A DNA stretch of 45,922 nucleotides, filler included, from Jimgerdemannia flammicorona (Eukaryota): the NCBI GenBank assembly GCA_003990765.1. It is 2 parts of 2 records of this genome, joined end to end, with 100 filler letters (N's around TTAATTAATTAA, not from the genome) between each part and the next. Parts side by side here need not be neighbours in the genome. Positions count along the whole stretch, not along the records: positions 23,018 to 45,922 come from RBNJ01001187.1; 1 more part is not named here. One strand, written 5' to 3'. Under the pieces are notes generated by a model. The model saw only the letters and a list, made by a program, of their open reading frames with translations, was not told the origin of the DNA and ran no database searches. Shown here piece after piece: positions 22,918 through 44,995 of the stretch. Position numbers and translations under genes: made by a program. The stretch's first letter is position 1. Each line of letters opens with the position of its first letter.

Positions 22918-23017
22918 NNNNNNNNNNNNNNNNNNNNNNNNNNNNNNNNNNNNNNNNNNNNTTAATTAATTAANNNNNNNNNNNNNNNNNNNNNNNNNNN
23001 NNNNNNNNNNNNNNNNN
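22918..23017. other. Assembly gap with artificial linker N44-TTAATTAATTAA-N44
   Basis: 44 N + 12-mer with stops in all six frames (22962-22973) + 44 N = 100 bp. Confidence 0.97.
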
Positions 23018-23059: not shown

Positions 23060-26000
23060 CTATCCCCACCCTCCCACTACTCTGCTCACAGATCCTCATC
23101 ACCAAACTGCAATGTCATCCTCTCTGAGGACCCCAACCCACCCACCATCTGGTCAGCAGATCCCCCACCAGCTCCTCCCATCTTAATACCTTCTCACACA
23201 GCCCCAACTGCTGCCCCTCCTCAAATATAAAAAGCCAATGGCTTGCCATTCTCACCCATACTGCTAATACCTATCCTACAGTGAGCCAACTATCCCCAAC
23301 CCTGCCCACAAGCCGAGATCTTAAGTCCTCCCAGCAACCCCCCTCCCCCACCTGCTGATGCCCCACACTCAGTCTATCCCCTATCTCAGCCCAAAATTCC
23401 CCCAAGACCTCACACTCTTCCAGCCAATGTTCCGGTGTCTGTACATAACCCCCAGTCTACCCAACATCATAACACTCCTCACAGTCAAATTGTCCACCCT
23501 CTACTAAATGCCCCACGTGGAAATTCAGCATGACATTCCTCTGCAACATTCGCCACCAGACCACCCAGAACTTGGGAGGAAGCCACTGCTGTACCTCAGT
23601 ACTCCAAGACCAGATGCCTGCCCAGTCCCACTCCTCTCCAATTCCAACTGCCTGCCAGCTACTTGGCCAAAGGTTCTGGCCAAGCCCCTGCTGACACTCC
23701 ACTCCCTCCCCAATATCAAACAAAGCCAGTGGAGTACCCCCCAGGAGCAGTCTATCCCAACACTACATATTAGGCCCCCACGCTGCCTCCCTCTCGTTAC
23801 TCTGCTATTGCAGGCCAATTCAGTGTGCTCCATCGGTCACACTCCACTAAAAGCCCTTGAACCACAGTCTCTGAACTCTATTCAGCCCCACCAAAGAGAG
23901 CAGATCTCCAGAGGACTCTCGGGGGGATGTTTGTATCTCCCATACCTTCTGCAGCAGAGGCACCCAACCTCTGCCCTGCAATTGCACAGCTCTCTTCAAC
24001 CACCAGGCTCTCAAGCAGTACAGCCTCTTAGGGAAATCTACCAGGCCAAGACCTCCTCTGACTACTGGTCTCGCAAGAGTATCCCAACTGACCTGGGACC
24101 TCCTCCCTGCCCAAATCCAATCCCTAGCCACCTTTGTCAGCCTCTTCACCACCCATGCTGGGAAATCGAGGTGATATGCCACATACCATAGCTTTGGGAA
24201 CCAATATACATTCAGGATCAACATCCGCCCTGCTAGAGAGATATGGCAGCCTCCCCATCCTCAAAGGGCCTCCCCCCAACTATTCACCCTGCTCTCCCAC
24301 CACACTCGCGGCAAGACAGACCCATATATAGAGAGGAAGATGCCCAGATACCACACCACCTCACCAGTAGGGACAATCATTCCAATGACGTCCCCACCCA
24401 CTAGCCCATTCCCTAGCACCATTGTCTCACACTTATGCCAGTTGAGTTTCACTCCTGAGTGAGCCTCATACCATTCCACAGTCTCCTGAAGTGCTACTAC
24501 ATCCACCACAGACCCAAGGCCAACCACCATATCATTAGCAAAGGCCCCCACCTTCCACACTATATCATAAATAGAGAGCCCTGCTACCTTCTGGCGAATC
24601 CTATCCATCAATGGCTCCAGGGACAGGGCATAGAGAATTGGGGATAGAGGGTCCCCCTGAGGTACTCCTCTTCCCAAGGGAAATGCCCTCCTGTGGTGAC
24701 CATTACACATCAGAGCTGCCCTACTACTCTCTAGCAGACTCAATATAGAGGCTCTAAATGTTGGGGGAACACCAATTCAGTCCAACACCTTCCCCAGCCA
24801 CACCTGCCATATACGGTTGTAGGCCTTCTCCTGGTCCAGAAAGACCAACCTTCCATCCAGTCCACAGGTCCGGGCCTCTTCAATAACACCATGAACCCAT
24901 GCAGTCCCATCTCTTATTAGCCTGCCCCCAACAAAGCCCCTCTGCTCTTCCCCCAGCACCTGTTGGGCAACCTTCTGCAGCCTTGCGACAATCACCTTAG
25001 TCACCATCTTCCTGTCTATATTCAGAAGCATGATTGGCCTCCAGTTCTTCCAGTCTTCCCTCCTTCCCTTGTCTTTGTACAGTAAGGCCACCAGCCCCAG
25101 ATCCTGCTCTCCAACCCACGCACCACTCTGAAGGACATGGTCACAAAGATCAGCCATCTCGCCCAACACTCTGGGGATATTTACCATCTTCTTCCAGAAG
25201 TCCCAAGGCAATCCATCCTTCCCTGGCACCGTCCCAAGCTTAGTTGCTGCCAGGACACTCTGGATCTCCTCCCTCTGTACTGGTAAGATCAAGTCCCCCA
25301 GGCCAGCAACCTGCGGAGGCCCCCACTCATCTAGTGTAGTCACAATCTCTGCCTCATCTGCACCCCCTTCTCTCTCACTCCACAAACCCTGCCATCTCTC
25401 CTTCAAGACCTCCAGGATTTGTTGCATGCCATGAACCATGTCCTTATCAGCATCCAGGACCCCATCCCACCAATGATGCACTCTCCTAGCTTTGAGAAGT
25501 CTTGATAAGTATCTAGTAGGCTGCTCACCCTCCTCAAGCCCCTGCCACCGCAGCCTAGTGGCTATGCCCCGCATATGGGTCTCCTCCTCTTCCCTCAGCA
25601 CCTGTTGTAGTTCCACTATCTCCAATTTCGCCCTTTCTATCCTCCAGTCCTCCACCCCTACAATAGTGAGCAAATCCACCCAATCTATTTGTAGTCTCCT
25701 CAGCCTGCTGAAAGCACACCTCGTGCACCTCCTTCTCTGCCTCCCAGCCTCTCTACCAGCCTCTCCCCAATAAACCCTTGCAGCCTCTTTCAACCTCATC
25801 CAGCAGACAGCCACAGGCAAACCCTCATGCTTCCAGATAAAAACTTTTGCCTGAATGTCCTCCACCCACAGTTCCCACAGCCCCTTCTCAGTCAGCAGGG
25901 AGGAGTTAAGGCACCAATGTCCGGGTCCATCTCCACTCTCCCCAAACTGCCCCTGCCCCAACAGTTCCCAGTGATCAGACCATGGGCACCACTCTACTTC

Positions 26001-26651
26001 CAATGCCTTCTAAACATCTGAACCCCAGCACTCTGCCATCAGAATCCAGTCAATCCTTGTACCCAGGCCATTCACCCAATGTGTGTAAACCCTGGTGTCA
26101 CCCCACCTCGTTCTGTCCATATCCCCCAAGGAGCTCAATGTCTCCACCTTCTCCCATACATCCAGATCTCCACTTCTACCCCTGGCACTCCTCCCTCCAT
26201 CAGTTCTGTCCAGATGCTGATCCCGAACCATATTAAAGTCCCCACCGAGAACATCGACCCCTTCCTCCAAGAGAATACCCTCCTCCAGTAATCCTCTAAT
26301 CTATGCAATCCTCTCACCCCTAGCTGTAGGGCAGTAGCAAGAGCCCACCTTCACCGATTCCCACCCTGGCCAATGCCAATCTCCCCAGACCAAGCGATCG
26401 CCCCAGCTCCTGATTCCCCCCAAGTCCCCCCTGCCCTTCTTCACCAGGATTGCTACCTTTCCAAACCAAGCAGCAGCCCCCCCCCACTCCCTAGTCCACT
26501 CTGCCCAATTATCCTCATCCTCACATCGAACATCCTGCAATAAAAAGAGATCAGCCTCCAATCCCTTGAGCCAAGTAAAAATGTTTCTATGCTGCCCAGA
26601 TCCCCTTAGCCCATTCACATTCAAGGAAAAAATGTTAGTTGTACTATTCAT
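23060..26651 (-). pseudogene. LINE copy B ORF2 (APE endonuclease + RT + C-terminal zinc motif), disrupted
   Basis: MNSTTNIFSLNVNGL, LQDV, GGDFN, RIDW, WSDH, PGKDGLP, NWRPIMLLNIDRK, LDQEKAYNR, GVPQGDPLSPILY, AFAND (DD mutated) and YLGI, with stops and frameshifts. Confidence 0.95.
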
Positions 26652-26698
26652 AAAGAATAATGATATATATCAAAGCCCACCCTCTATAAGTCAGTATC

Positions 26699-28718
26699 CT
26701 ACCTCTCCTGCACTAAGTCTAGGTTAAGTTCAGCAGCCAGTTCCCTCTCCCCAGCTTCCCTTGCCTCCAGCTCTCCCAGAAGTTCTACCATTGCCCCATC
26801 CTCACACTCCTCAAAATCCTTGCGATACTCCAGACAGGCCTCCTGCCAGAGCTGCAGACCCCAACACTCTGCCCAACAGTAGTCTGCCCACTCAGCGGCA
26901 ACCACCCTCAGCTCCACCTTCCTCACCTTGTCAACCTCATATCCCTCCTCTTCCAGCAAAATCGCCAGAATCTCCACCTTCAGTGCCTCCACCATTCCAT
27001 CCCCATGCAGGATCCTTGCCCAATGCTCCTCAGGCATCACCCACAGGTCAACCTCCCCCAATGCTTCTGCTGCGAGGTTATCTATCACCTTGCGTACCCA
27101 CAACAAGTTCCCCACCTCCTTCCCTCCTGGAGTCCCTGGTCGCCCAGCATCCAACATCATTGTGTCAGCTCCTACACTAGCAGCCTCATCCCACTCCTCC
27201 TCAGGGACATCCACCAGCTCATCCTCGCCAACTGCCACCACCTGATCCCTAAGAGCCACATCAGGGACCCCAAAGTGCACCTGCTGGGCCCCCTGTATCT
27301 GTATATCCTCTGTCCTCCCTCTCTTCCCCACTGGGCCCCTCCTGATAAGTGGGGGGGGGGGTGGTATCCAACTCTGGCTCCCACACTTCAAAGGTACCAT
27401 CAGCAAATGGGTCCTTGGCCAGCCCCTTCCCAGCCCCTGCCCCCTTTGCTTCTACCTCCTCTCCTCCCTTACCAGCCCAGACACTGGCCTCAGCACCTCC
27501 AGACTCCTTAGCTTCATCCGACTGCTCCTTCCCCCCACCTGTCATACTTGCCAACAGCTCCTTCTGCCTCTTATATCCCTGGACCCACTCCCACTGCTTC
27601 TTATCCATACAGATACGCCTCCCACCCACAATCTTCAGATGCGTCGATTCCTCATACAGTTTCCAGGTCTTTGCCCTCCTCTCTACAGCACCACCCAACT
27701 CCTCCAGCACCTCCAACAAGTCCTCCTCCTCCTCTTCACTCCCCTTCACCCTCGACACCTTGCAGATGATGGCCCCCCACATCAGCACTGAGGGCCAGTC
27801 ACTCATCTTCCCTGTGGCCTCCTTCCCTGCCAACCAAATTCTGACATTGATGTTGTTCGTCCTGATAGTCGTCCCCTCCCACAACTGAAATCCAATGTCC
27901 ACCACATCTCCATACTCTACCATCACCTCCTCTACCCTCCTCCTAGTCTCCTCCTTAGTCACCATGGGCACCCCCCTCACCAGAAGCTGCACCACCCTGG
28001 GGTCCCACCTCAAGCACCTTACCATGGGGACCACTACCTCTCCAACCACCACTCCTGTCTTCATGGCCTCATCCAGTAGGCCTGCCTCCTCAAAGCCCAC
28101 CTCGATCCCCTCCATGCCCTTCAAGAACTTTACTGAGGCCGCACCAGCCACCTGCCCTGAGATAAGCCCCAGGACCATTCTCGCCATCACTGCCAAGCCC
28201 CAGAAATACAAGGTAGCCATGAACTCCAAGATTGACTTCTTGAGCAATGGGGCCACCGCCAGTCCCATTACACCATCAGCCAGGTCCCCCTTCCACATCA
28301 GGCACCCCTGTCCCCCCTGGCCATCAGCCGTCACATCTCTTTTTCTTTCCAGATTCACCATCACACCACCATCAGCAGTCCCGCCACTACCCCCAGCCAC
28401 TACTCCACTCTCTCCACCTCCTACCAGTGAAGGCCCAGCTCCCCCAGTATCACCAGCCTTCTGCTTCCCCTTTCCTTCTGCCTGTCCACTGTGGGCACCC
28501 CTCGGCCAACCCCCAGCCTTAAGTGCATCTGCAAAGCTCCCTCCCTACTGCCCTTCAGCCCCCCCACCAGTGCCTCCTCCACCCCCTGAGCTGCCCAGTC
28601 CACTCGATCCACCGAAAGATCCCATCCCCAGTCCATACTCTCTCCCGACATACTGCCAGTCGAAGGCCCCAGGTCCATCCGACCTAGGACATGCATTGGC
28701 TCACTTGCTAGTTGATAT
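26699..28718 (-). pseudogene. LINE copy B ORF1, disrupted
   Basis: Long fragments 27261-28400 and 26699-27406 (frameshift at the G run ~27350-27362). RRM-like VVQLLVRGVPM..EYGDVVDIGF..TNNINVRI. The start codon equivalent to copy A ATG is ATA at 28718. Confidence 0.8.
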
Positions 28719-30196
28719 CTCCTTAATATCTTTCTCTAATAAATGATTTAAAAGTGTGTTGAAAAGTATGTGTAACATAAATTATAGTGGAGAGAGATAT
28801 TGGTCTATATGTTTACCTAAATGAGTTTGTAAGTCTATAGTATCAATTTTATAGTATCTGAGAATTATTATTAGTTTACTATATAAAGATATTTTAGGAT
28901 ATTATTATATTATTATTATATCTATTATTAGAAGATAAATTAAAAGAAAAATAGAAAAAGTAATTATAATTTTTAAGAGTTCTGATCACTAACTCTGATA
29001 TTTTTAAAATAATATAATTAGAATTAAATATATATTAATTTTTATCTTATATAGAATATAATTAATAAATATCTATAATGAGTTTATATATATATATTTC
29101 TTTATCTATAAATAAGAATATCTTTTAAAATCATTTAGTAAATAAGTTAAAGTTTGAAAAAATAATTTTCTGAAATATTGTTTTTCTATTAAATATATAA
29201 CTCAATTTGTTTAAAAAAAAAAGATTATTGATAATTTTTTTTTAAAGACTATTATAATTTTAAAAGATATAAACTTTTAAAATCTTATATCTAAATATAG
29301 ATACAAAATAAATAAAGAGATATATATTAGAGATTAGTTATAGATACTAAAAGACATTAGTTCTTAAAACTTCAAAATCTATTTATTATTTATAAAAGTA
29401 GAAAGCTTAAATTATTAGAAATTATAGTTGTCTCTTTCTCTACTATTATACTAGTTATAAGATATTGGTAAGTAACTATCTGGATTCTTTTTCTTTTAAC
29501 TTCACTCTCTTTACCTTAATATAGTTTACTATATCTATTAAAAGATAGTAAGAGGAAGACAATAGTAATAAGTTATCTCTTTATTAGTATCAGATCAGTG
29601 CTTTTTCTATTTTTTTACAGTTTCTAGTATACCTTTGACTATATCTGGAATATATTCATTTTAGTATAGTATCTGTTTTCTTTTATTATTATCAATAAGA
29701 TATTATTTTAGTATATTATAAGTTATATAGGAAATTAGTTAATTATAGATATCAAGTACTAATATAGGTTACCTATAGATTATTGATATCTATAGTAAAA
29801 CTATCTGAGCTTTGATAAGCTTTTTAACAAGTATGGTTCTAGTATAAGTGGCTTTTTTTTCAGATAAAGTCAGGATAAGAGAGGAGATAACTATTATAAA
29901 TAAGAAAATGAGCAATTATGATAAACTAGTTAGATGTCAGGCTAAGGATAATTATTAGAGTTAGTATAAATACTGTATTAGTAGGGTCTTCTGATTAGTA
30001 TAGAGTGGTTAGATGATAGATATTACTCTCAGTAACTCTCAGTAATCAGTAAGGTTAGGCTCTAGTCATTTAGAGTTATTATAAGATCTAAGGCTACCTA
30101 GGTCAAACATTTAGGCTGTACTCAACTAGAACTGAGAGTTGATATAATAACATAATTGAGATCTGTAGACTTGAGTAGTAGAGTACATATTGAGAG

Positions 30197-30429
30197 TAGT
30201 ATACTTAATAAATCAAATTGAATCAAAGGTTCAATTTAATTTAAGATTTAATTCAAACTCTATTTTTTAAAATATAATAACTTAATAAAAATATGTCTAA
30301 ATTTAATGATCTTTAGCTTGTTAAATTTTGACATATTTTTGTCAAGTTATTATATTTTGAAAAATAGGGTTTGAATCAGATTCTCAATTTAATTCAATTT
30401 GAATTAATTCAATTTATTTAGGAGCACTA
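30197..30429. mobile_element. Palindromic MITE, hAT-type, 233 bp
   Basis: Long imperfect inverted repeat centred near 30312. Right terminus ggagcacta is the reverse complement of TAGTGCTCC. 8-bp flanks attgagag (30189-30196) and attgaaag (30430-30437) differ by one transition. Confidence 0.75.
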
Positions 30430-31349
30430 ATTGAAAGTCTCTTCTTACTTTATATATAAGTCCTTCACTTACTCTATTAGAGAGAACTAAATTCTATCTA
30501 CTACTCTATATCTTGAGGAGAGTTTTTTATTTGTCTGTTGCTTTATTTGAAGTAGTAGAGACTTTTAGCTATTTAGCTCTAATATGATCTTATATATTAT
30601 CACATAGTAGGTACTAAGTTCTCCAAGTATATCAGATTCTCTTTAAGATATATCTCTTAGACTAACTATAAGTTTCTTATAAGCAAGTTCTATTAGAGTA
30701 TCTTCTTAAGGTCTTATAGTCCTCAAACTTCTTATCTTTAAACTATTCTGTTGTCTCTTAGATTTGCTTGCTTGGAATTGAGTAGAGGACTGGAACTTCT
30801 ATACTTCTTGAGTAGTTGGGTGCTCAAATGCTTGAGTGTTTTGATACTTGACTACTGACTTTATTTCAAAAGAAATGAGAGGGGTATTTATACAAAATAT
30901 AATTTAATAGTTGCTAAGTTATAAAACTAAATATAAATTCCAATAACCAAATAAATGAGGTACTTGAACACAGAAAACTTCAGTTGTAAATATAAATTCA
31001 AGTATCTATACAATTGGTTGTATAAGATCAGAATGCTGGAATAATTTCTAATAGTTATATAAGATCAGAATACTAGAAGAATTTCAACAGTTATATAAAG
31101 AACTTAGAGCAGAATATTCAGAATTCTTGAGACTTCATCTTCATCACTATCATTAAGACTAGAGGTTGGAATGTCCTTAAAGGAAATGAGGTTGATAAAT
31201 ATTTTGTCTATTTCATATATTTTATATATATTATACATATCAATCAGTGGAATGATATCATTACTGATGACATTATCACATTTGGTAGTAGTGGTGGGGA
31301 GAGTAAGGAGATCAAGAGCTCTCTAATTTATGATATTTTTCTCTACAAA

Positions 31350-33391
31350 TATAAGAGGGTTGCTTTTTAGGGTAACCATTACATAGTTCTGAAAGGGTTT
31401 TCTAGAAGTTCTGGATATTCTGGAAGACTATTTTCTTATGATCAAGATCAATTTTATATGGAGTATGTTCTCTATGTTTATTGATTTTTAAATCGGGTTG
31501 ACGTCTCAACCAAAGTCCTTTTTTGGACTAGTTCTGGATGTTCAGAATTTTTTGTATTTCAGAAAGTTCAAGAAACTAAGACCAGCTTAGTTGAATTGGT
31601 GTATTGCTGCAGACAATACCCAATTAGGAAATTTCATAATAGGGTTAAGAGTAGGACTTAACAGAGAGTGGATTTACTTAAGAATATTTTGTGGGTTATT
31701 AAATAGGTTTATTCGCTATTCATGATATTGCTATACTAGGAGTAGTTGTATAAAGGGATATTGTGGAGAAGTGCTTAGGAGTTGTGTTCAGATTGTTCAG
31801 ATCTATTCAAGTCTGAGATTCTGAGGTCTGAGGGAGGGGGTATTTATACTAGTGAGGGGCTATCTGGACTATATTAGATATGGATGTAGTACTAAGTGCC
31901 TTGCTGAGTTGGAATGTAGTCACATAGTACAAGTGTGATCTGACATATCAAGAGATCATCTGACTACTGAGTCAGTTCACAGTCATGTTGTATAAGGCTA
32001 ATCTAACTATACTATGACTGCTAGGCTATTTATAAGTTTAGACACTGCTTGAGTAGTCTTTGATAACTTCACCATTGATGACATCATCTCTGATAAAGTA
32101 GTCATCCAGGAAGAGTGATTTGTGGATTACTTCTCCTTGTTGGCTGAGGTAGTAATACATTGGAACTTTATCACCATCCTACAGAATAGCATCATCTGTC
32201 TCATATAATGGATAAGGTGTTGGTGAGTGAAGGAGTAGTGCATCATTTTTGCTTTTATTGGATTCACTGTCTGTATACCTTCTATAAGTTACAGTACTAT
32301 GAGTCATGGGATTGTAGTATACTGGTGGCTGTGGTTCATGTTGCTCGTACTTAGGTGGTAGAGTGGTTGGTTCAATCTTGAGGGTTGTCTGAAGGTACAG
32401 GTTGTGTTCTCCAGTCTCTTTATTATAGTTGAAGTAATTGGGGATGAACATAGGTTGATATTCATGCCAGTGGTCATTGTCCCAGTAGGTCTCATAGGTG
32501 GTTATGAACTGTTGCAAGTTTATTGGCAAGGTTGGTGGTGTGATTAGGGTTGGCAGAGATCTTTGGCTGGAGGTCATGTTGGCATCAGAGGGATCATTGT
32601 CTTCTGCTTCATCTTCATCGAAGTGGATTATATCATAGACATCCTTCATGGCATATCCAACTTGAGGCATTTGCAGGATATGGTTATTGGGGTGTGGAAA
32701 GGTTCTGTCTGTAGTCTTAACATACTCAAGGTACTTCTAGTTGAGTTCTTGTATCATGTCATTGATTTGGCCATAGGACAAGGTAGTAATCATTTTGCTG
32801 GTAGTAACTTGGAGGCAGGGAATAATGGTGCTGTACTTATAAAAGAGTTCTTGGTGTTTGTAGGTGATGAGTTTCTGGTGTTGGGATATCTGGGTAATAT
32901 CTGTATCATAGTGGTATTCGATCATATCTTCCAGAAGGCAGCTGATCTGGTAGTAGCTTGAGATTTGTCCAATTCAGTGGACCTCGCTAAGTATGTTCAG
33001 GGTATTCTATCAGACTTTTATGAAGTAGAGGGGTACTAGGCTATAGATATTCATGAGGGACAGAGGGGGTGTAGCTTAGTTAATAATGGCATTCCAAATG
33101 TCAGTATAAATGTGGTTGTAAATCTTGGTGGTCATATTTGTGTATTTGGAAGTTGTGGTTATTGTTTGTTTTGGTTCTCTGTTTCGATATGTCTTGGTAC
33201 TTGGTATATATATATTTGGTTCTGATTGGTAAGATTCTGTTTGTGTGAATCTTGTATTCCATGACTTCATGTTGACTCAGCTTTATACACTGTAACTTCG
33301 GTTTGACTCAGCTTTGTGATTATACAGGTGATTTTCAGATTTGTTCAGAGGTTGCATGTGATTTCAGTGGCTTAGAGATTGTGTGCTTACA
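31350..33391 (-). repeat. 3' LTR (2042 bp)
   Basis: Direct repeat of 39882-42050. Begins TGTAAG on the minus strand next to the PPT. TATAAATA at 31841-31848 and AATAAA at 31708-31713 (minus). Confidence 0.95.
32026..33135 (-). pseudogene. Orphan ORF in the U3 region of the 3' LTR (370 codons in one frame, interrupted only by transition-derived stops)
   Basis: ORF-track pieces 33076-33270, 32737-32925 and 32179-32670 are all in one frame. Most stops are sense codons in the other LTR (TAG/TGG, TGA/CAA, TAG/CAG, TAA/CAA). TATA-like run at 33205-33214 upstream of ATG 33135. Confidence 0.75.
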
Positions 33392-33403
33392 ACTCTCCCC
33401 TTC
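33392..33403 (-). other. Polypurine tract
   Basis: gaaggggagagt immediately precedes the 3' LTR TGTAAG on the minus strand. Confidence 0.85.
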
Positions 33404-33839
33404 TTAGCTTTTGACATCCTCATCAGAGCCTTCTAATTTGTTCTAGTATTGTTATATTGTTTGGGAGGTCAAAAGTCTGGTAAGGTCCATTTTTCTCAGA
33501 AAGTGGCATGCTCATAGTACAGTTGCCTAATACATTGGATTCACATGTTAAAGGATCATATGTTTGATGCTATATGCCAGAAGTGATTCTGACATCATTT
33601 ACTGCTGGAGAATTTTCTCTAAGGAATCTTCTTAAATGTCTATACCTCATTTTCCACCAGTGGTATGGGGAGAATAGGCTTGCTTTCAGTTTTGCTATTT
33701 TTCCAGAGGGTCGGTATTCTTTTGTCTTGACTTGCTGAGTTCTTGATTTGGTTTGTAATAATTATACTGTTTGGAAGATAATATATAGTATATACTGATA
33801 GATGTTGGAGTGTTCAGGTTTCAGTTATTCAGGGAATCA

Positions 33840-33990
33840 TATTCCTAAACTAGGTTGGTAGCATTCTGGAGGTTGGTCTTGAGTTTCCATGTTGCATCAT
33901 GGATCAGATAACCTTTCTATTTGACAAGATACTCAGGGTGGTTCTTGTGGCCATACTTGTTGAGGATTTGTTTAACTTCATATTCTTCTT
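33840..33990 (-). other. Chromodomain at the integrase C-terminus
   Basis: EEYEVKQILNKYGHKNHPEYLVK*KGYLIHDATWKLKTNLQNA. Confidence 0.85.
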
Positions 33991-36900
33991 GGTCATTAAT
34001 AATGACAGGTGCAGGTGGTTTGGTGGTTCAGTTTGGGAATAGCTCATCATCATTTTCATTATATTGCTTGAGACATTGAACATTGAAGACTGGGTAAATA
34101 TTAATGATATCTGGTAGTGCCAATTTGTAGGAAGTAGGAGAGACTTGTATAATGACTTCAAATGGTCTGATAAATTTGCTGTTCAACTTTGTATATGGTC
34201 TGTGCTTGAGGTTGTCAACTTGGTATCCTTGGATGTCTAGTAGAACTTTTTCTCCAATATCAAAGGTTTCTTCTTGGCAGTATTGATTAATATACTATGA
34301 CTGTTGTTCTTGAGCTTATGATAAATTCTCAATTGCAATCTGACTTAGATTATATATTTGGAGTAAGAATTCTTCAACAGCTTCGACTGTAGAGGGTTCT
34401 TCAGTAGTTCAGATAAGTGTCAAAGGGGTGTTTGGGTTTTGTCCAGTATTGGCAAAGAATGGGGTCATTCCTAGGGAGGCTTGCTTGCTGTTATTATAGG
34501 CAAACTCAACTACAGTGAGGTGTTCATGCCAATCATCTTGTCTGTAAGAAACATAGTTCCTTAGCATTTTTTTCAGAGTTCAGTTCATTCTTTCAGTTTG
34601 GTCATCAGTTTCAGGGTGAAAGGCTGTAGATAGTGTAAGTTTCATTCCAAGGTATGCATAGAGGGCTTTCCAAAAATAGCTAGTGAATTTCAGATCTCGG
34701 TCACTAATAATGATCTTAGGAAGACCATGATAGTGGAAGATGTTGTCAAACAAGATAGTTAGCATGAAGTGGGCTTGTTTGCTAAGATAATCCACACAGA
34801 CAATGATTGCATCTTTCCTGTTCTTAGTTCAGGGTAGTTATACAATGAAGTCCATAGAGATTTATTCCCAATTAGCAGATGGTACTGGAATAGGGTATAG
34901 TAAACCAGGTTTTGCTAGTGTTGAGAACTTGTTATGTTGGCAGGCATTACAGGAAGTAATGTAGGTCTTTAGCTGATCTGCCATGCAGGGCCAATAGAAG
35001 TTTTGGGAAATAACTTCATAATATTTGTCAAATCCTAAATGTCTAGCTGTAGGGACATTATGACATTCAAATAGGATAGTTCTTTGGAGGTCTCAGTTGT
35101 TTGGAACATACAATCTATTCTTGTAGTAGATAGCATTGTCCTTCAGTTGGTATTGATGATACTAAGTATACTTGTCAGCATCATCACTGTTCAGAATTTC
35201 TCGGAGTGCTTGAGCTTTCTTATCATCAGCACATGCTGTGATAATTTGTTCCATGATGGAGTTTGTAACCAGGGTGAGGGTTTGGATAACTTCTTTGATT
35301 GGTGGTCTGGAGATTGCATCAGCAACAATATTTTCCTTGCTAGGGCAATACTGAATTTCATAGTCAAAGTTAGTGAGGACTTTTATCTATCTGGCTTGCT
35401 TTCAAAAAAGGGTAGCCTGTGTCTTGATGTTGACTAATGACTTGTGGTCAGTCAATAGTGAAGTGTGCTCCTTCTAGGTATGGTTGCCATTTGATCAGAG
35501 TATCTACGATGGCTAACATTTCCTTCTCGTGAGTTGTGTAGTTGATTTCAGCATCATTGAACTTACAGGAGTGATAGGCCACAGGGTGTCCTTCTTGCAT
35601 GAGTACTGCTCCAAGGGCTAGGTCAGAGACATCAGTAGTAACTTTATATGGTAGGGTAGGGTTTGCCACTTGAAGTACTGGAGTAGTTATCAAGACATCT
35701 TTCAGTACTTGAAAGGCAGTATCTTGCTCAGGTCCCCAATTTATAAGATTGTTGAAGTCTTTCTCTTGTTTCATAGTCCAGGGCTGTTCTTCTTTCTTGC
35801 TATGCTTGGTCATTTGGGTAAGAGCAGTGGCAATTTTAGCAAAGTTGGTAACAAATCGCCTATAGTAATTTGCTAATCCCAGGAATGACTGGAGGTCTTT
35901 CAGCTTCTTGGGTCTGGGCTAATCCTTAATTGCAGAAATTTTTCTGGAGTTTACTTTGATTCCATTTGGTGTAACAATGTGTCCAAGGAATTGAATTTCC
36001 TTCAGAAGGAATTCATACTTGCTGAGTTTTGCAAAGAGTTGGTTTTCTCAGAGTTTCAGTAGTACTAGTTCAAGATATTCAAGATACTCCTCCAGGGTTT
36101 TGCTGAAGACTAGGATGTCATTAATGTAGACAATAACAAATTTGTCCAGGTATGGGTGCAGAATGGTGTTCATCAATATCTGGAAGGTTGCAGGAGCATT
36201 AGTTAAGCCAAAGGGCATAACTAGAAACTCGAAGTGTCCATAGCAAGTTTGGAAGGCTATCTTGTAGATATCTTCTTCTTTTATGGCAATTTGCCAGTAA
36301 CTATTTTGCAGGTCAAAAGAGCTCATGCATTGTGGGTTGGTAAGCCTGTCAAATATTTCATCGATTCTGGGTAGTGGATAACAGTTCTTGATGGTCTATT
36401 CATTGAGATTACAGTAATCAATGCATATTCACAGATCTCCTTCTTTCTTTACAATAAAGAGAACTGGTGCACCATAGGGTGATATACTGGGTCTGATGAA
36501 TTCTTGTTCTAAGAGTTCATTGATTTCCTTCTTGAGTGCATCAATTTCTCTTGAAGACATATGGTAGATTGACTTGAAGGCTGGTTTGGCATCTAGGATA
36601 GTCTTGATGACATAGTCCACTGCTCATTTAGGTGGTAGGCCTTTCGGAAGCTTCTTTGGAAATATGTCTCAGAATTTCTGGAGTAAGGGTCTAATCTGGC
36701 TGTCAACTTTGAAAAAGTCTTCTTTAGAGTTTTCAGGTTCTCCTTTGGATGGATGGATGGAGATGGCAAAAAGAGGGCATTTCTTGGCCAATTTCTTGAG
36801 TTGCAGCTTGTTGATGTGGGTGATCTTTGGTCCAGGGTCACTAGAGTTGAGTGGGTCTTTTTTGTCTTACAGTTTAAAGTTGTGGCATTCTTTCTTGATG

Positions 36901-37444
36901 GTCAGAGAATGATTTACCCAATTGATTATGGGGTTCTCTTATTTTAACCATGGAGTTCCAAGGATGATTTCATTGTCTGAAAGTGGTACTATCTGCAGGG
37001 TAACATATACTCAATAGTCACTAATTCGGAAGAGTAGATTGTGGATTTCCTTACTGATAACATGAGAGGTTCCATCAGCTGTGGCAACTGCTTGAGTTTG
37101 TTGTACCAGAGAGGTGAAGACCTTGAGTCTGTTAGCTGTTTCTTTATTGATGAAGTTGCCTGAGGCACTACTGTCTATCATAATCTTGACAGGTGCTCAG
37201 TTGACAAAAGCTTTAAGTATAAGCAGTTTGTCTAATCCAATGGTGGTGATTTTAGTTGTAAGAGCTTTCCTTCTGTTGGTTCTTCTTTGAGCCAGTTTAT
37301 TGACACAAGAGAAGCAATTATCAATTATTTGGGAAGAGTACATTCCAATGCCATGAGGGTATTGATCACTTGATACATATCCATCTTCAATTTTCTTGTA
37401 GAATTGTTCTTCTTTGTTTATAGTAGGTTGGACTGAGGCCTTGT

Positions 37445-37856
37445 TTGATAAGCTAAATCCTTTAGATCCTTGGATGGTAGGTAGTAGTTCAGGGACTTCC
37501 TTGACTGTCAGAGTTGACTCGATTTTTTTGAATAGGATCTGGGCAATGCAGAAACCAATGGGAATCTTGAAGAGTATCCAACTGTGGTTTTGGATGAGGA
37601 TAATAATTTTGCCTGTATAATCCTTGTCAATGACTCTTCCTTCTACTGAGAGTCCTTTCAATGCTAGGCTGCTGTAATAACATATTCTTCCAACATATCT
37701 TTCAGGGATTTGGATACTGATTCCTGTGTAGACTTGCTTGACTTCTTGGTTAGAAACTATAGCTTCTTCAACTGCATATAGGTCATATCTAGCTACTTTT
37801 TGACTTCCTTTAGTTGGGGCCTTAGCAGTTTGTCTTAACTTGACAAAGTCTAGTAT
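37445..37856 (-). pseudogene. dut: Trimeric dUTPase domain within the retroelement polyprotein
   Basis: All five motifs are recognisable: ARYDLYA, GRICYYSSLALKG, GRVIDKDYTGKI, CIAQILF and TIQGSKGFSLS. In frame with the upstream zinc knuckle and the downstream protease. Confidence 0.9.
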
Positions 37857-39869
37857 TCTGGTGGTCAGGTTGTTGAGGTGGTACAGAGTGGTAATAGTTG
37901 CTTGTATTGCTGTTTGGAGTTTTCAGTTAGGGCAGGCACTGGCCATGTATCTTGTCTTTCAGCAATAGAAGCATGCTCCACTTCTTCGAAGTTCATTCCT
38001 TTCCCCTTCAGTGAGTTTCTTGAAGGTACTCAGCTAGGTGGATTCATGATTTCTGGGTGTCCATGAGGTGGATGTAGAGGGAGCTCAGGATGCTTCATGC
38101 TTGGGTTCTTCTTTCTTGGTTTAAGTTTTTTTCCTTATTGTTGAATTGTCTTTGGGGTAGAATCGGTCCAGCTGTTAGGATTCACTTGACCATAGTCTTG
38201 ATTCTTGCCAGGTACTATTGTTGGTAATCACAACCAACTGGGCAGTCTTATTCTTGGATTTTTCTAGTAAGCCATTCAGGCAGGGTATTGAATAAATAGT
38301 CTGCTCTTGTATCATTTCATACTTCATCATTGGTAATATATTCTAGACCAACAGTATTCAGGAGTGACTTGAGTTTTATACAGAAGATTTTGAATTCTTC
38401 TTTGCCATATACATCAAATTTGAGATTGTGGAGTTTTACTTAAGATTCAGTAATCATGGTTTCACTGCAATATTGAGCAATCATGAGTTGTTTGAGTCCA
38501 GAGGCTACAGGATGGACTCCATATCCTGGGGTATTATTTGCTGCATTCTGAGCAACTACTGCAGGTTGGGTGTCCCACATAAGGGTTTTTTCAGGAAGGG
38601 TTCACTACCATTCTTTGGCAGGTCCTCAGAAGAATGTAACAACTCAGTGGACATAGGCTGTGGTTGTTACAAAGAGTTGTTCTAGAGTGTGGTCTTAATT
38701 GTTTATTAGAACGCAGTCAGCAACTTACTCATTGGTCCATTGATTGGCTTTAAAATTGGTATCAACTATACTAATGAAGCTTTGGACTTCTTGTACAGTA
38801 CCATTGAAGGTAGGTAGGCTCAGGTTTTTAGTAGGTCAGGTCTGTTCAGCTAAGGCAGTAATGGTTGCTGCCATTATAGTTACCTGGGCTGTAAGGTCTA
38901 GAATCTGTTAGTTCACCATATTGTTTACTGAAGGTAGTTGGACTACTGGTAGTAGTGTTACTGGTACTACTTGAGGTACTGGTGCAGAGTGTGAGAGTGT
39001 TCTTTGTATCTGTGTAAGTTGCTGGAGTAGTAGTTGTGGGTCTGGAGTAAGAGCTTGATAGATAACTGTTTATTGCTGTGTAGGTATGTTCTGGCCTGAT
39101 GAAGGTACATCTCCTTCAGTGGTGTATCCAGGATCGAATTCACTGAGATACTCCTCCTCTTCTTCAGTTTGGTCTCCATGTAATTGGGTTTGCTTGGCAT
39201 CAAAGTAGATAGAATTGGTTATATATCTGATTTCAGATGGACTTAATTCAAAGTCAAGTTCAGGTTCAGTGTTAGTTTCAGGTTCAGGTAAGGCTATAGC
39301 AGGGCCTGCTTTAGGTTCAGGGTCAGGTAGTTGATGAAGGATTTCTCTTACTTCTTCTTTAAGAATATGGTGGGCCTTGCTGTTCTGGAATCAATTGTAT
39401 AATGCAGTCTTAGTTCTGGTACAGTGAAAGTCAGTAGAGTTGAGCCACTTGGCTACAGAGGCTTGGGCTTCATGAGGAACTAAGGCTAGAAAGACTGCTG
39501 ATGGTTGTCCTAGATCGCTCGGATTTGTGGAGCTGACAAAACTCTTATTGAGAAGAGTAAAGAAGACTTCTATAAGACTTTCTTCATCTTGACTTGCTGG
39601 GTATAGAGCAAGGAGTTTGATGAATAGGGTTTTGCCTATTTGCTGATTTAACTGAAGTATTTCTTTCTTCGAATGAAGTTTGTCCCACTTGTTGTAGGTA
39701 TGGAGATCAAATTATCCTTATACATCAGGTTCAATTCTCTCCAGATTGTCAGATGGTTCAGGATAAATTTCAGTTCAGAGGTTGGGCTTTATACTAACTT
39801 ATAGGAATTCTCAGAAGGGTTTGTAGTGAGGTGAGGAAGCATCTTGAAGTAGGATTGGATTGTAAACTG

Positions 39870-39878
39870 CTGCTATCA
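39870..39878 (-). other. Putative primer-binding site (tRNA-iMet-like)
   Basis: tgatagcag lies 3 nt after the 5' LTR, one transition away from TGGTAGCAG. Confidence 0.5.
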
Positions 39879-40301
39879 AGTTATAAGAGAGTTGCTTTTT
39901 AGGGTAACCATTATATAGTTCTGAAAGGGTTTTCTAGAAGTTCTAGATATTCTAGAAGACTGTTTTCTTATAATCAAGATCAATTTCATATGGAGTACAT
40001 CCTCTATGCTTATTGATTTCTAGATCAGGTTGATGTCTCAACCAAAGTCCTTTTTTGGACTAGTTCTGGATGTTTAGAATTTTCTATATTTCAGAAAGTT
40101 CAAGAAACTAAGACCAGTTTAGTTGAATTAGTGTATTTCTGCAGACAATACCCAATTAGAAAATTTCATAATGGGGTTAGGAGTGGGACCTAACAGGGAG
40201 CAGATTTACTTAAGAGTATTTTGTAGATTATTAAATAGGTTTATTTACTATTCATAATATTGCTATACTAGGAGTAGTTGTGTGAAGGGATATTATGGAG
40301 A

Positions 40302-40389
40302 GGAGGGGCCCCCCTGTGGGAATTGGATAGTGGGTAGGAATGATGTATATTTATTCATAAACTGGTAATAAAGGTGGAGTCCAAGTGAC

Positions 40390-40420
<31 letters not shown>
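40302..40420 (+). mobile_element. Short poly(A) retroposed insertion (5'-truncated LINE/SINE 3' end) with TSD
   Basis: Absent from the other LTR. Contains AATAAA, ends in A28, and is flanked by gggatattatggaga at 40287-40301 and 40421-40435. Confidence 0.9.
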
Positions 40421-40423
<3 letters not shown>

Positions 40424-40691
40424 ATATTATGGAGAAGTGCTCAGGAGTTGTGTTCAGATTGTTTAAATCTGTTCAAGTCTGAGATTCTGAGGTCTGGGAG
40501 AGGGGGTATTTATACTAGTAAGGGGCTATCTGAACTATGCTAGATATGGATATAGCACTAAGTGCCTTACTGAGTCAGAATGCAGTCATATAATACAAGT
40601 GTGATCTGATATATCAAGAGATCATCTGACTACTGAGTCAGTTTACAGTCATGTTGTACAAGGCTAATCTAACTATACTATAACTGCTAGG

Positions 40692-41794
40692 CTATTTATA
40701 AGTTTGGACACTGCCTGGGTAGTCTTCAATGACTTCACTATCAATGACATTATCTCTGATGAAGTAGTCATCCAGGAAGAGTGGTTTGTAGATTACTTCT
40801 CCTTATTGATTGAGGTAGTAATACATTGGGACTTCATCACTGTCCCACAGGATAGCATTATCTGTCTCATATACTGAATAAGGCATTGGTGAGTGAAGGA
40901 GTGGTGCATCATCTTCACTTATTCACTGTCTGCATATCTTCTATAAGTTACAGTACTATAAGTTGTGAGATTGTAGTATGCTGGCAGCTGTGGTTCATGT
41001 CACTCATACTTAGGTGGTGGAGTGGTTGGTTCAATCTTGAGGGTTGTCTGAAGGTACAGGTTGTGTTCTCTGATCTCTTCATTATAGTTGAAGTAATCAG
41101 AGGTGAATGTGGGTTGGTATTTGTGCCAGTGGTCATTGTCCCAGTAGGTCTCATAGGTGGTTATAAACTATTGCAAGTTTATTGGTAAGGTTAGCAGTGT
41201 GATCAGGGTTGGCAGAGATCCTTGGCTGGAGGTCATATCAGCATCAGAGGGATCATTGTCTTCTGCTTCATCTTCATTGAAGTGAATTATATCATAGACA
41301 TCCTTCATGATATATCCAACTTAAGGCATTTGCAGGATATGGTCATTGAGGTGTGGAAAGGTTCTGTCTGTGGTCTCAACATACTCGAGGTACTTCTGGT
41401 TGAGTTCTTGTATCATATCATCAATTTGGCCATAGGACAAGGTAGTAACCATTTCGCTGGTAGTAACTCAGAGGCAGGGAATAATGGTACTATACTCATA
41501 AAAGAGTTCTCAGTATTTGTGGGCAATGAGTTTCTGGTGTTGGGACATCTGGGTAATATCTGTATCATAGTGGTATTCAACCATGTCTTCTAGGAGGCAG
41601 CTGATCTGATAGTAGCTTGAGATTTGTCTGATTTGGTGAGTCTCACTAAGTATGTTCAGGGCATTCCATCAGGCTTCCACAAAGTAGAGGGGTGCTAGGC
41701 TATAGATATTCATGAGGGGCAGAGGGGGTGTAGCTCAGTTGACAATAGCATTCCAAATGTCAGCACAGATGTAGTTGTAGATCTTGGTGGTCAT
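40692..41794 (-). pseudogene. Second copy of the U3 orphan ORF (5' LTR), with a 7-bp deletion near 40920
   Basis: Collinear with 32026-33135; 1103 vs 1110 nt. Confidence 0.72.
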
Positions 41795-42699
41795 ATTTGT
41801 GTGTTTGGAAGTTATGGTTGTTGTTTGTTTTGATTCTCTGTTTTGATACATCTTGGTGCTTGGTATATATATATTTGGTCCTGATTGATAAGATTCCATT
41901 TGTGTGAATCTTATATTCTGTGACTTCATGTTGACTCAGCTTTGTGCACTGTGACTTCAGTTTGACTCAGCTTTATGATCATACAGGTGATTTCCAGATT
42001 TGTTCAGAGGTCACATGTGATTTCGGTGGCTTAGAGGTTGTGTACTTATAACAAAGTAGAGGACAAAGGTGAAATCTTGAGGGGATTGAACCTGGATACT
42101 GGAGCCTTGAAATACTGAGATTAATCCTTGTAGGAATTGATCTGGGTTATTCTCAAGAATGGGATTTCAGAACTCTTCTACCTTATTACTTTTGAGAGTG
42201 ATATATAGTGAATTGGACTTCTGTGACTGATAGTCATCAGAGTTGAAGTAGACATTATCTTAATAGAGTCTTTTAATTAGCTGGTAGATAGTAGAGTAGT
42301 ATAGTGGCTGATATTCTAGCTGTACCCAACTAGAACTAGGAGCTAACACAGTAATATAATCAAAGTATATAGGTTTAGAGAGTGAAATCTTTCTCATTTA
42401 ATAATATCTGACTAAAACTAAGAGCTAATATAATAATGTAATCAAGACCTATAGGCTCAGAGAGTGGAATTGAGATCTTTTCAGATCTTATTCTATATAT
42501 CAGTCTTTTTGAGAGAGTCTCATATATAAGTTCTTTACTCATCTATTATAAATCTATTCTACTTCTTATTAGTTAGTTGGGGGGTTTTTCTTTGTCTCAG
42601 AATTTTTTTTAAGATTCAGAGAGCTATTTTTTATTTAGTCTCAGTATTGCTAGATCTAATATATAAGTGTGCTCTTATATTATTAATATAATGATCCAA

Positions 42700-44995
42700 T
42701 CTTAGTGAGCAGATAAGTCTGATCTATATAGTAGGAGTTGATATATCTAATAGATATATATAGCTAGAATAGTAGAACTACTCGATAATTTAATAGCCTA
42801 GGTTAATAAAGGGATAATGTTTGGAGTAGTGAGATGGGAGAGAGTTTTGGTCTATATAGTCTAGATTCTCTTCTAATAAAAATCTGCAAGGAGAATAATT
42901 CTATTATAAAAAAAAAAAGAAAAAAAAAAAATAAAATAAAAAAAAAAAAAAAAAGAAAAAAAAAAAAAATCACATTTTGATCAGTATAAATAGAAGAGCT
43001 GATATATTATTTAAAGAATATATTATTGACTTTTATCATATTTTGCTCAAATCAAAATTCTTTAAGTTAAAAATATATTCTAAATTAATTTTAATTTATT
43101 TAACCTTAATCTATTTCAGACAATTTCAGAACTGAGAAGAATATTAATATTAAAGTTGAGAATATTAGTACTGAAGTTGAGAATGCTGATACCAAAGATA
43201 TCAAAGTTAAAAAAATAAGATACCTCTAGAAATTATATCTGGAGATAGATAATAAGAAGTATATATTAAACTGATCAAAGATTAGATAAAGTAGAGAAAC
43301 TTGTTATTACATTTAATAAGAGATATTAAAGAGAAGTAAAGCTATCTCCATAATAGCTATTTTGTTTTATTTTTATTTATTTTGATTAATTTTTAATTAA
43401 AAATTATTGAGAGAGATAATATATATATAGTAATATATTTTACTAATATAAGTTAATATATAGTAGCTAATATATAAAACCAAGTTTTAGCTTAAGTTTT
43501 ACTATATAATCTAGCCTACTAAACTTCAAAAGCCTCTTTATAAATATTTATCAAAATCTAACTTATCTGATCTTCTAAAATTTCTCTCTAAACTACTAAT
43601 ATTACTTTCTCTATATTAGTATCTAGAATAATATAATTGTAATATAAATTTAAAATACCAATTGATAAAATAGAGAATTCTAAAAATATCATAGTTTAAA
43701 ATTAATTTTAATACTTTTCTGAAATTTAATAGAATATAATGTTCTACTTTTTCAAGATTCTATATGTAGAGTATTAAAGTTTATCTAACTATAAAATTGA
43801 GTCTTGGAATTCTTAATATTTTAAAATTCACCAGACTTGAAATTCAGAACTGAGTTTAAATAAATTTTACTTTAAGATTCTGCTGATCTTATTAGTATTA
43901 CTGTTATTAATTCAAAAAATCTATCAGTTATATTTTCTATTAGTCCTTCTTAACTTTTTAAAAAATAAAATAAAAATAAAATAATCTCATTAATAATTTA
44001 TAGTTAACAGATATCTTGCTCTCTTAGAAACTATATCTAGAAATCACTTAATCTTATCTGAATAGTTAAAAGATACTAAAAAATTTAGTTATATATCTTC
44101 TGATCTATTAGGAAAAAGCTCTCAGAAAAATAAAAATACTATAGCTCAGACAACTCTTTATGATAAGATCTCTGAAATATCTTTTAAAGTATATTAATTC
44201 TCTATTTCATATTGATAATATAAGTCAGAGAGCTCAAAAATATTTCTAAAATATTACATTCTAGAGGTTTTCTAAAATCTAACTCCAGGGTAGTTCTATT
44301 TAGTAAAAGAGTAATAGATATTGATATAGCAGTCTCTAACTTCTATCTTGAAGTAGTTAGAGATTCACTCAGATTAAAGTTAATTGAGATAAAATTATCT
44401 TTTATTTCAAAAAACTGATAGAAAAGAAACTGATAAGGGAGAAACTGTAGAATAGAAAAGAAACTAAAAAAAAAAAAAATAGAAGAGAAGAAAAAAAAAG
44501 AATAAAAGTAAAGTTAATTATAAAAAAAAAAAAAAAATCTAGCCTCTATATTATCTAAGACTGATACCAAAGACTGATCACAAGAGATTCTTTTTGAGGA
44601 AAGAAAGTACATATATCAGTAGTACAAATTAAAGAACACTCTTCTGACTAATCTCTACGAATATATATATATTATGAGAAATTTATCATTACTGCTATAT
44701 ATCAGTAGAATTATTATAGAAATATATATATATATATTATTAAGATTTTTATTAAGTCTAAGACTCATGAGACTGTCTCATCAGTGAAAAAATAGGACAT
44801 TAATAATATATTGTTATTTATATCTAGTTATGATCTGAATCTAGTAAAGAAGAGCAGAGGCTGATTATAATAGCTTTAGTAATCTATCAGAGAAACTTAG
44901 TATACTTGGCCAGGGTGATCTGATCTGATTGTATTACTGTTGAAGTTATTTATCATTCATAATCAATATTAGAGAGAGAATTATAATTTTCTTAT
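42700..44995. other. Very AT-rich, CpG-depleted degenerate repeat DNA
   Basis: No ORFs, almost no CG, TA excess and A-tracts. 28810-30100 has the same character. Confidence 0.6.

Follow-up and report, generated by a model that had tools for sequence, protein, structure and literature searches.

A decayed protein-coding gene inside both long terminal repeats of a dead chromovirus from Jimgerdemannia flammicorona

Can the long terminal repeat (LTR) of a retrotransposon carry a protein-coding gene of its own? The question is raised by a chromovirus, a Ty3/gypsy element with a chromodomain, in the genome of Jimgerdemannia flammicorona (GenBank assembly GCA_003990765.1), in both LTRs of which a long, repeatedly interrupted open reading frame (ORF) had been noticed from the sequence (referred to below as the original prediction). 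We analysed the whole stretch of 45,922 nucleotides that contains this element, filler included (referred to below as the window); positions 22,918 to 23,017 are filler joining 2 records, adjacency across the filler need not be genomic, and the element part comes from RBNJ01001187.1. The frame is a decayed copy of a genuine protein gene of 365-369 codons, situated wholly inside an LTR of about 2 kb and carried in two copies per element.

Self-comparison and self-BLAST of the window detected one pair of long direct repeats (31350-33393 vs 39882-42052, 88.6-91% identical). The boundaries of the element were then assigned by global alignment of the two repeats with MAFFT and by inspection of the flanks, where a 5-bp target-site duplication was found. 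The 2 LTRs of the element are 89-91% identical (self-BLAST and MAFFT) and, at 2042 and 2169 bp by alignment and target duplication, they are as unusually long (about 2 kb) as had been stated. The element and its borders are as follows.

42050-31350, minus strand: whole element (MAFFT global LTR alignment and flanks)
39882..42050, minus strand: 5' LTR, 2169 bp (self-BLAST, MAFFT, boundaries)
31350..33391, minus strand: 3' LTR, 2042 bp, with ends TG...TA (self-BLAST, MAFFT, target duplication)
42051..42055, minus strand: target-site duplication TTTGT (5 bp), upstream copy
31345..31349, minus strand: target-site duplication TTTGT (5 bp), downstream copy

Translation of the sense strand of the element reproduced the predicted frame of 370 codons from the ATG at 33135 to 32026, together with the Tyr/Trp/Asp-rich peptide blocks that had been quoted from it. 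The codons of the two LTR copies were compared one by one, and the frame and its copies were delimited as below.

33135 to 32026, minus strand: frame of 370 codons beginning with ATG, LTR positions 257-1366, wholly within both LTRs (translation)
32041..33135, minus strand: LTR-embedded ORF, 3' LTR copy, codons 1-365, pseudogene (translation, codon table against the sister LTR)
32026..32040, minus strand: end of the ORF, with TAA at codon 366 (CAA in the sister LTR), three codons, and TAG at codon 370 common to both LTRs
40692..41794, minus strand: LTR-embedded ORF, 5' LTR copy, pseudogene, ATG at 41794

The 3' LTR copy has premature stops at codons 20, 42, 43, 54, 133 and 319. Compared with two uninterrupted relatives, P0003 and P0001 (see below), it has no frameshift, its gaps being limited to two in-frame gaps of 2 codons. 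The 5' LTR copy has 8 premature stops, 7 of them in codons 1-291, and a 7-bp deletion at codons 292-294 (about 40921/40920), beyond which the homologous sequence (40919-40707) is read in a different frame and holds one further stop. Thus, the claim that the frame runs without an indel holds for the 3' LTR copy and fails for the 5' LTR copy. The original prediction had also explained each interrupting stop either by a sense codon in the sister LTR or by CGA>TGA/TAA. The stop codons 43, 54, 133, 319 and 366 of the 3' LTR copy are sense codons in the sister LTR, and codons 20 and 42, which are stops in both LTR copies, are Arg in P0003.

One objection is that the frame is open by chance in a non-coding, A/C-rich LTR, and that the environmental 'proteins' resembling it are artefacts of gene callers on the same repeat. 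The base composition gives this objection some footing, since the sense strand is rich in A and poor in G and this reduces the stop count; the in-phase antisense frame also has few stops (9), and the structure models of the relatives are of low confidence. However, the span of the ORF contains 8 stops in this frame vs 17 and 36 in the other sense frames, and dinucleotide shuffles of the same span gave a mean of 25.3 stops (standard deviation, 4.6) and never fewer than 12 (n=3000). The timing of the stops points the same way. In aligned codons, the stops common to both LTRs number 3 in this frame (codons 20, 42 and the terminal 370) vs 13 and 32 in the other sense frames, and among the sense frames it is only here that private stops exceed shared ones. 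Because the two LTRs are identical at insertion and share so few stops, most stops of the frame arose after insertion; because only three are common to both, the frame was open or nearly so when the element inserted. The objection is further opposed by the relatives, the more distant of which, at 57% identity, keeps 247 codons open with in-frame gaps only and with conservation arranged in blocks, and by the direction of the differences from P0003, which run C>T/G>A. Taken as an explanation of the frame, chance seems to us very improbable.

The relatives were obtained as follows. When 5.8 billion proteins were searched, P0001 (247 amino acids, encoded on a 998-bp contig) was the sole match among 301 word-sharing candidates; a search among shorter proteins gave P0003 (128 amino acids, 1180-bp contig) as the sole match among 20 candidates. 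P0003 starts at the same Met as the window frame, and its residues 1-128 are 71% identical to the 3' LTR copy, with no gaps and no stops (E 8e-67), and 82% identical, gapless, to the 5' LTR copy; where the window has stops, P0003 has sense residues, namely Trp at codon 43 and Arg at the other three (20, 42 and 54). P0001 aligns with residues 115-365 of the frame (144/251 identical (57%), 198/251 positive, two 2-codon gaps, E 9e-102), and its C-terminus aligns with codon 365, that is, with the same end as the window frame. The two relatives, both free of stops, jointly span the whole frame. The amino-acid differences from P0003 that C>T/G>A alone in the window codon could produce are 34/37 in the 3' LTR copy and 20/23 in the 5' LTR copy, and the reverse changes could produce 1/37 and 1/23; all 8 stops in codons 1-128 (4 per LTR copy) are accounted for by C>T/G>A. 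Because this direction is so one-sided, the window copies are deaminated derivatives of a P0003-like intact gene. P0001 represents a more distant family in which the 247 codons have been kept open, and its comparison with the window family gives conserved blocks parted by variable acidic or Ser-rich linkers, which hold the in-frame gaps. In the cluster look-up, both P0001 and P0003 were singletons without informative names.

The decay itself has a clear signature. Among 2037 aligned columns, 214/216 of the differences between the two LTRs are transitions, leaving 2 transversions, and the observed/expected ratio of CpG is 0.13 and 0.04 in the two LTRs and 0.08 in the internal region vs 1.04 in the gene-bearing host DNA at 1-14000. 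Several codons that read TGA in one LTR read CAA in its partner, a pattern that would be expected of CpG deaminated on opposite strands in the two copies. Both LTRs and the rest of the element were therefore struck after insertion by C>T/G>A hypermutation centred on CpG. Because only 2 transversions separate the LTRs, the insertion is young but heavily hypermutated. With regard to classical repeat-induced point mutation (RIP), C:G to T:A transitions in duplicated DNA are present here, as given by the 214/216 LTR differences, and the index (CpA+TpG)/(ApC+GpT) is 1.19-1.35 in the element, above the value of about 1.03 below which classical RIP is called; because of this index, the decay is taken to be mainly CpG-directed, not CpA-directed. 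A side observation concerns the AT-rich blocks described as flanking the element (28800-31344, 42056-45700 and 14500-16500; GC 0.24-0.33), where TpA/ApT is 1.03-1.16 and (CpA+TpG)/(ApC+GpT) is 0.83-1.04, while the element is characterised mainly by the loss of CpG; two decay regimes, or two ages, adjoin here.

Is the gene a property of this one copy, or of the family? The LTR sequence was sought in four other public runs (X1, X2, X3 and X6; one from a soil metagenome, two from 'organism A', one from 'organism B'), whose contigs were mapped on the 3' LTR at an identity of at least 80% in 30 bins. Matching contigs numbered 2615 in X1, 332 in X2, 383 in X3 and 346 in X6, and they covered 30/30, 30/30, 30/30 and 28/30 bins, respectively. 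Contigs of X6 span the ATG (32958-33188) and the stretch from the end of the ORF to TATAAATA (31811-32099). At position 32739, within the TAG at codon 133, the letter that gives CAG accounts for 1746/1786 of the depth in X1 and for all or nearly all of it in X2, X3 and X6. The repeat and the ORF in it are thus abundant elsewhere. Beside gag-pol there is an ORF that lies in both LTRs, is open in two relatives and recurs in LTR contigs of 4/4 runs (these figures are not a copy count). Separately, junctions were noted in single low-depth contigs of X2, from about 31720 in the LTR (just ahead of the AATAAA) back to where the LTR starts, and from 33373 back to 32626; another organism may have LTR copies that are rearranged or in tandem.

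These data also bear on the possibility that a piece of some unrelated transposon, nested in no copy but this one, has given rise to the frame; the unusual length of the LTRs speaks for it and nothing else does. The frame occupies the same position in both LTRs, contigs from another organism join it to the same flanking LTR sequence, and a Pfam scan of the six LTR frames found no transposon domain. The LTR alignment and the contigs of the other runs rule out a nested fragment private to this copy, one of the findings that had been named in advance as fatal to the gene, and the probability left to it is practically nil.

A passenger, namely a host gene or fragment captured into the LTR by transduction and having no role in the life cycle of the element, is a more serious candidate. 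Retrotransposons do capture host sequences, as described in PMC7264820, and the searches of Pfam, Atlas and PDB gave no function that could be assigned to the product. However, captured ORFs are described in the same source as typically limited to one or few copies, whereas this ORF is open in two relatives, shows 57% identity across the family and recurs, in ORF-containing pieces of LTR, in 4/4 runs. Moreover, no cellular homologue was found among the 301, 20 and 1938 word-sharing candidates or in a representative library of 1.84 billion proteins, which was searched with a profile of the C-terminal 247 positions. We consider the passenger explanation improbable. The library search returned P0001 itself and P0002 only, the latter a 1324-residue tandem-repeat protein matching over 24 residues (E 1.4e-4) that was treated as spurious. 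The 1938 candidates came from a search for longer, fused forms, of which 0/1938 scored; this is weak evidence against fusion. Scans of metagenome, viral and genome contigs with few peptide patterns did not yield the DNA of the relatives.

Several points weigh against the gene or against our reading of it. There are just two relatives, each a singleton on a short contig of about 1 kb, and, as gene callers report open frames only, the sample of relatives is biased to intact copies. P0001 begins at the residue aligned with Met115, so that the N-terminal region may not be universal, and the profile used for the representative library consisted of the C-terminal 247 positions, with the N-terminal 114 residues outside it. 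Codons 20 and 42 are stops in both LTRs, and the inserting copy may have been broken already in its N-terminal part; parallel hits at these two codons are nevertheless plausible, because all six CGA-type positions are mutated in both LTR copies. Neither relative has a confident predicted fold (AlphaFold2 (AF2) mean predicted local distance difference test (pLDDT) score, 31.8 for P0001 and 43.1 for P0003; Atlas model pLDDT, 0.39). The placement in U3 as opposed to R/U5 and the existence of an own promoter are read from sequence motifs, and the guess at function is read from composition. With these points set against the stop counts, the differences between the LTRs and the relatives, the central claim of the original prediction, a formerly intact gene lying wholly inside both LTRs of a chromovirus and broken by C>T/G>A changes, is upheld. 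We regard it as probable that the best explanation as a whole is a decayed genuine intra-LTR gene for an element-encoded accessory protein of a new family.

What kind of protein would this gene have encoded? No family had been recognised for it at first sight, and none was found by database comparison. In the Pfam scan of the ORF and the six LTR frames, no family was reported at E up to 1 except GrpE (11.8 bits, below the cut-off of 25.8); comparison of the profile with PDB sequences gave no match (best E, 0.13); and the Atlas look-up for P0001 gave no usable feature match, with a structural template-modelling (TM) score of at most 0.30. P0003, which corresponds to the N-terminal region, is near-neutral (isoelectric point (pI), 6.28), and its low-confidence AF2 model is all-helical with 6 helices. 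P0001 has a pI of 4.05, with 46 D+E vs 10 K+R, 9.7% Pro and 9.3% Tyr. The protein thus probably consists of a helical N-terminal region of about 140 residues, followed by about 225 residues that are very acidic, Pro/Tyr-rich and disordered. Segments spanning a membrane have a mean hydropathy of about 1.6 or more, and no hydrophobic segment was detected in either relative (maximum Kyte-Doolittle mean over 19 residues, 0.57 in P0003 and 0.97 in P0001); an env-like role was rejected, as there is no signal peptide or membrane segment. A simple pattern scan found no occurrence of the nuclear-localisation pattern K[KR]x[KR]. The last 40 residues have a net charge of -10 and 8 aromatic residues, and windows of 40 residues reach net charges of -9 to -10 with 3-8 W/F/Y. 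Such a combination of acidic and aromatic residues is the composition of acidic activation domains, a criterion that serves as a heuristic and not as a classifier. From these features, the product would be an element-encoded accessory protein ('additional ORF') of a new family and not an enzyme, and it looks like a non-enzymatic adaptor or regulator, and not an envelope or capsid protein.

How could the gene have been expressed? Signals had been predicted on both sides of the ORF, and both were located: a TATA-like run about 70 bp upstream of the ATG, at 33214-33204, and TATAAATA at 31848-31841, about 180 bp beyond the end of the ORF. Together with a candidate poly(A) signal, they are the following.

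33204..33214, minus strand: TATA-like (TA)n run, identical in both LTRs, candidate promoter of the ORF (sequence)
31841..31848, minus strand: TATAAATA, identical in both LTRs, candidate main promoter of the LTR (sequence)
31708..31713, minus strand: AATAAA, candidate poly(A) signal about 135 nt downstream of TATAAATA (sequence)

If TATAAATA is the promoter in use, the ORF is in U3. In the model that we propose, the TATA-like run some 70 bp before the ATG would serve as a basal promoter for a separate mRNA of about 1.5 kb, which would end at the LTR's own AATAAA; this would put the ORF in U3, ahead of the main TATAAATA. We give this model, a separate mRNA from the TATA-like run to the poly(A) signal of the LTR with the gene in U3, an even chance of being correct. 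Other routes were considered: translation from the 3' part of the genomic RNA was judged unlikely, and so was a spliced subgenomic RNA, because a 6.5-kb intron would be needed in an apparent fungus. The use of self-priming to place the transcription start was rejected, as the primer-binding-site (PBS) region looks tRNA-type.

The same real gene might instead occupy R/U5, with the genomic RNA starting at the TATA-like run (about 33185) and the ORF as its first cistron, a 5' additional ORF (aORF) within the repeat. Under this arrangement, R or U5 would have to measure at least about 1.5 kb, far beyond the usual; gag would follow a 365-codon upstream ORF on the same RNA; and TATAAATA and the AATAAA 135 nt downstream of it lie after the ORF and are identical in both LTRs. 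On the other side, the TATA-like run (33214-33204) precedes the start codon at 33135 by 70 bp and no other ATG intervenes, and plant chromoviruses are described as having 5' aORFs of about 400 residues that are Pro-rich and largely disordered (PMC11728184). As a hint only, a 9601-nt contig of X6 matches codons 205-303 of the ORF at its positions 68-364, in the sense direction, and then continues for 9.2 kb; contigs show no RNA ends. We see in the R/U5 placement a minority possibility, though one of real substance.

The contig itself merits description. It derives from the 34-million-letter run of 'organism B', has a depth of 369 and is about 80% identical to window positions 32227-32523, and the 9.2 kb after the ORF match is unlike the LTR. 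A related element of full length, or a transcript of that kind, carrying the ORF close to the 5' end, could account for it. Note that the RNA nature of run X6 is a guess only; its summed contig depth, 1400-6000 over 31488-31763 and 10-30 over most of the ORF, is uninformative on RNA starts or levels.

As for function, the product may be a regulator or adaptor. For the anti-silencing or host-manipulation role suggested in the original prediction, the searches gave no fold, domain or functionally known homologue. The acidic-aromatic tail would recruit host factors, for example in transactivating the LTR promoter in the manner of foamy-virus Tas. We propose such a regulator, for example an LTR transactivator, only tentatively, from composition and analogy; other adaptor roles (in chromatin, anti-silencing or particle assembly) are jointly about as likely as the transactivator type. 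The fullest version of the proposal, in which an LTR-resident regulatory gene has evolved independently of retroviruses as a promoter-ORF-poly(A) unit in U3 whose product, a helical domain with an acidic-aromatic tail, would target in trans either the LTR promoter or the silencing or chromatin machinery of the host, we put forward as a doubtful conjecture.

The element that carries the gene is a complete but dead Ty3/gypsy chromovirus. Its internal region was examined by a Pfam scan of translations in which stops were read as X, and the completeness of the element follows from the Pfam matches in canonical order together with the gag knuckle. The features of the internal region are listed below.

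33392..39881, minus strand: internal region, interrupted by many stops and by one frame change or more
39860..39881, minus strand: primer-binding-site region directly after the 5' LTR (sequence, PBS-like stretch)
37973-37932, minus strand: decayed CCHC-like knuckle at the end of gag (sequence)
37826-37449, minus strand: dUTPase between gag and protease (Pfam E 2.4e-23)
37226-36888, minus strand: protease (PR) (Pfam RVP_2/gag-asp_proteas)
36431-35973, minus strand: reverse transcriptase (RT) (Pfam RVT_1, E 3e-25)
35738-35454, minus strand: RNase H (Pfam RT_RNaseH_2, E 2.5e-30)
35095-34928, minus strand: zinc domain of the integrase (IN) (Pfam Integrase_H2C2, E 1e-15)
34255-34061, minus strand: Tf2-type SH3 domain (Pfam SH3_Tf2-1)
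33982-33836, minus strand: chromodomain downstream of SH3_Tf2-1 (PF00385, 26.8 bits vs a cut-off of 25.1, E 5e-6)
33393..33405, minus strand: polypurine tract abutting the 3' LTR (sequence)

The order PR-RT-RNase H-IN, with the chromodomain at the C-terminus of the integrase, is that of chromoviruses; the integrase core domain did not score in the Pfam scan of the internal region. The PBS region presumably fits the initiator tRNA-Met; at the LTR edge, a loose contig end of run X3 has a less mutated version of it. The window as a whole gave no tRNA or Rfam match. The Atlas look-up of the ORF at 37197-37922 gave dUTPase clusters only. Chromoviruses bearing a dUTPase have been reported from fungi (Postia, Phanerochaete and Tuber), and the position of the dUTPase here, between gag and protease, is the arrangement described for some fungal chromoviruses in PMC2864245. 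A fungal host also agrees with the undepleted CpG of the host DNA and with the occurrence of relatives in soil metagenomes.

Within the 5' LTR only, an extra segment of 134 bp is found at 40284-40417; it opens on the sense strand with a run of 28 T and is flanked by a 16-bp direct repeat, and it looks like a small retroposed insert resembling a short interspersed nuclear element (SINE) in antisense orientation, which would have arrived after the element. Elsewhere in the window, two copies of another reverse-transcriptase-bearing element (17119-21929 and 23473-28282) stand head to head around the N gaps at 22918-22961 and 22974-23017. They are 66% identical over 4806 columns with 9 gap columns only, and on the shared strand they contain 35-38% G and 13-15% C (GC skew, about +/-0.35-0.5); we have no explanation for so deep a divergence with almost no indels and for the strand asymmetry. 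A GC-rich 27-bp tandem repeat of 4.3 perfect copies occupies 45806-45922 and reaches the window end. On the plus strand at 11027-11947, in a part of the window with 50% GC and normal CpG that presumably holds host genes, lies an open frame of 306 residues with weak F-box similarity (F-box, 23.0 bits vs a cut-off of 20.5; F-box-like, 24.2 vs 24.3).

How does an intra-LTR gene compare with systems already known? The nearest likeness in layout is sag of mouse mammary tumour virus (MMTV), the 'LTR ORF', a complete frame of about 320-370 codons inside a long U3 and hence in both LTRs; the open-access papers matched by this exact phrase concern almost only MMTV. The host element differs, however, being a retrovirus in the case of sag and a Ty3/gypsy retrotransposon here, where the placement in U3 is suggested by motifs. 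The products differ as well: MMTV Sag, from a vertebrate retrovirus, is a membrane glycoprotein of type II, whereas the protein here is without a hydrophobic segment or a Pfam match. Membership of the Sag family was not indicated by Pfam (no match) or by PDB sequences (no match below E 0.13), and a hydrophobic anchor of the Sag type was not found in P0003 or P0001. In foamy viruses, the tas/bet genes, with accessory or regulatory roles, are located at the genome's 3' end, extend into U3 and have their own internal promoter; Tas transactivates and has an acidic activation domain. These genes are those of a vertebrate retrovirus, only a part of them falls in U3, and the likeness to our gene would be one of function, by analogy and without a shown similarity in sequence or fold. 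To our knowledge, an intra-LTR gene layout has so far been a hallmark of a few complex retroviruses (MMTV sag, the bel genes of foamy viruses and part of nef).

Among retrotransposons, the 5' aORF of Tekay chromoviruses also is an extra ORF in a chromodomain-bearing Ty3/gypsy element; it is described in PMC11728184 as family-conserved and as encoding about 400 residues, Pro-rich and mostly disordered, with a few helices and no known domain or function. The Tekay protein is described there as having nuclear localisation signals, whereas K[KR]x[KR] is absent here; this comparison is one by description. Plant aORFs, in the account of PMC7264820, lie either upstream of gag, after the 5' LTR, or downstream of pol, before the 3' LTR, whereas the ORF here is inside the LTR and so duplicated. 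In Pfam, there was no similarity to the aORF or env-like families named in PMC11728184 (Athila ORF-1, PF03078; Transposase_32, PF20167). A self-contained, independently transcribed unit in each LTR is described for Cassandra and Helenus/Ajax (10.1101/2023.07.14.548913, PMC10886601), but what each LTR carries there is a Pol III gene for a small RNA (5S or other), and here it is a protein-coding ORF. Among fungal Ty3/gypsy elements, Boty-like (BcGypsy1) from Botrytis cinerea has an extra ORF, brtn, to which no function is assigned (PMC8365987, citing Zhao et al. 2011); it is antisense, and the description in PMC8365987 gives no LTR-internal location for it, whereas the ORF here, compared with it by description, is sense and inside the LTR. 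A search of open-access main text with exact phrases turned up no protein-coding ORF that had been reported from within the LTR of a retrotransposon; the structures of fungal elements in Additional file 1 of PMC2864245, 'add. ORF' among them, may be relevant here. The ORF is thus best labelled an additional ORF from an orphan family that sits in the LTR itself, the intra-LTR placement being new.

The LTRs of retrotransposons are usually taken as non-coding control regions and are masked by annotation pipelines, and reviews of aORFs place the additional ORFs between the LTRs and not within them; annotators should therefore check long LTRs for decayed coding frames before masking. The chromovirus case would show that this architecture of accessory genes can arise outside Retroviridae, and it would add an orphan protein family whose candidate roles are transcriptional feedback, evasion of silencing and integration targeting. 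A gene inside the LTR is present in two copies per element and would outlive LTR-LTR recombination in solo LTRs, so that its dosage would grow with everything that the family has been through. With a promoter of its own, it could be expressed while gag-pol is silent. If the LTR-resident regulatory gene conjectured above is real, thousands of LTRs could act as a dispersed gene family that feeds back on the activity of the element family.

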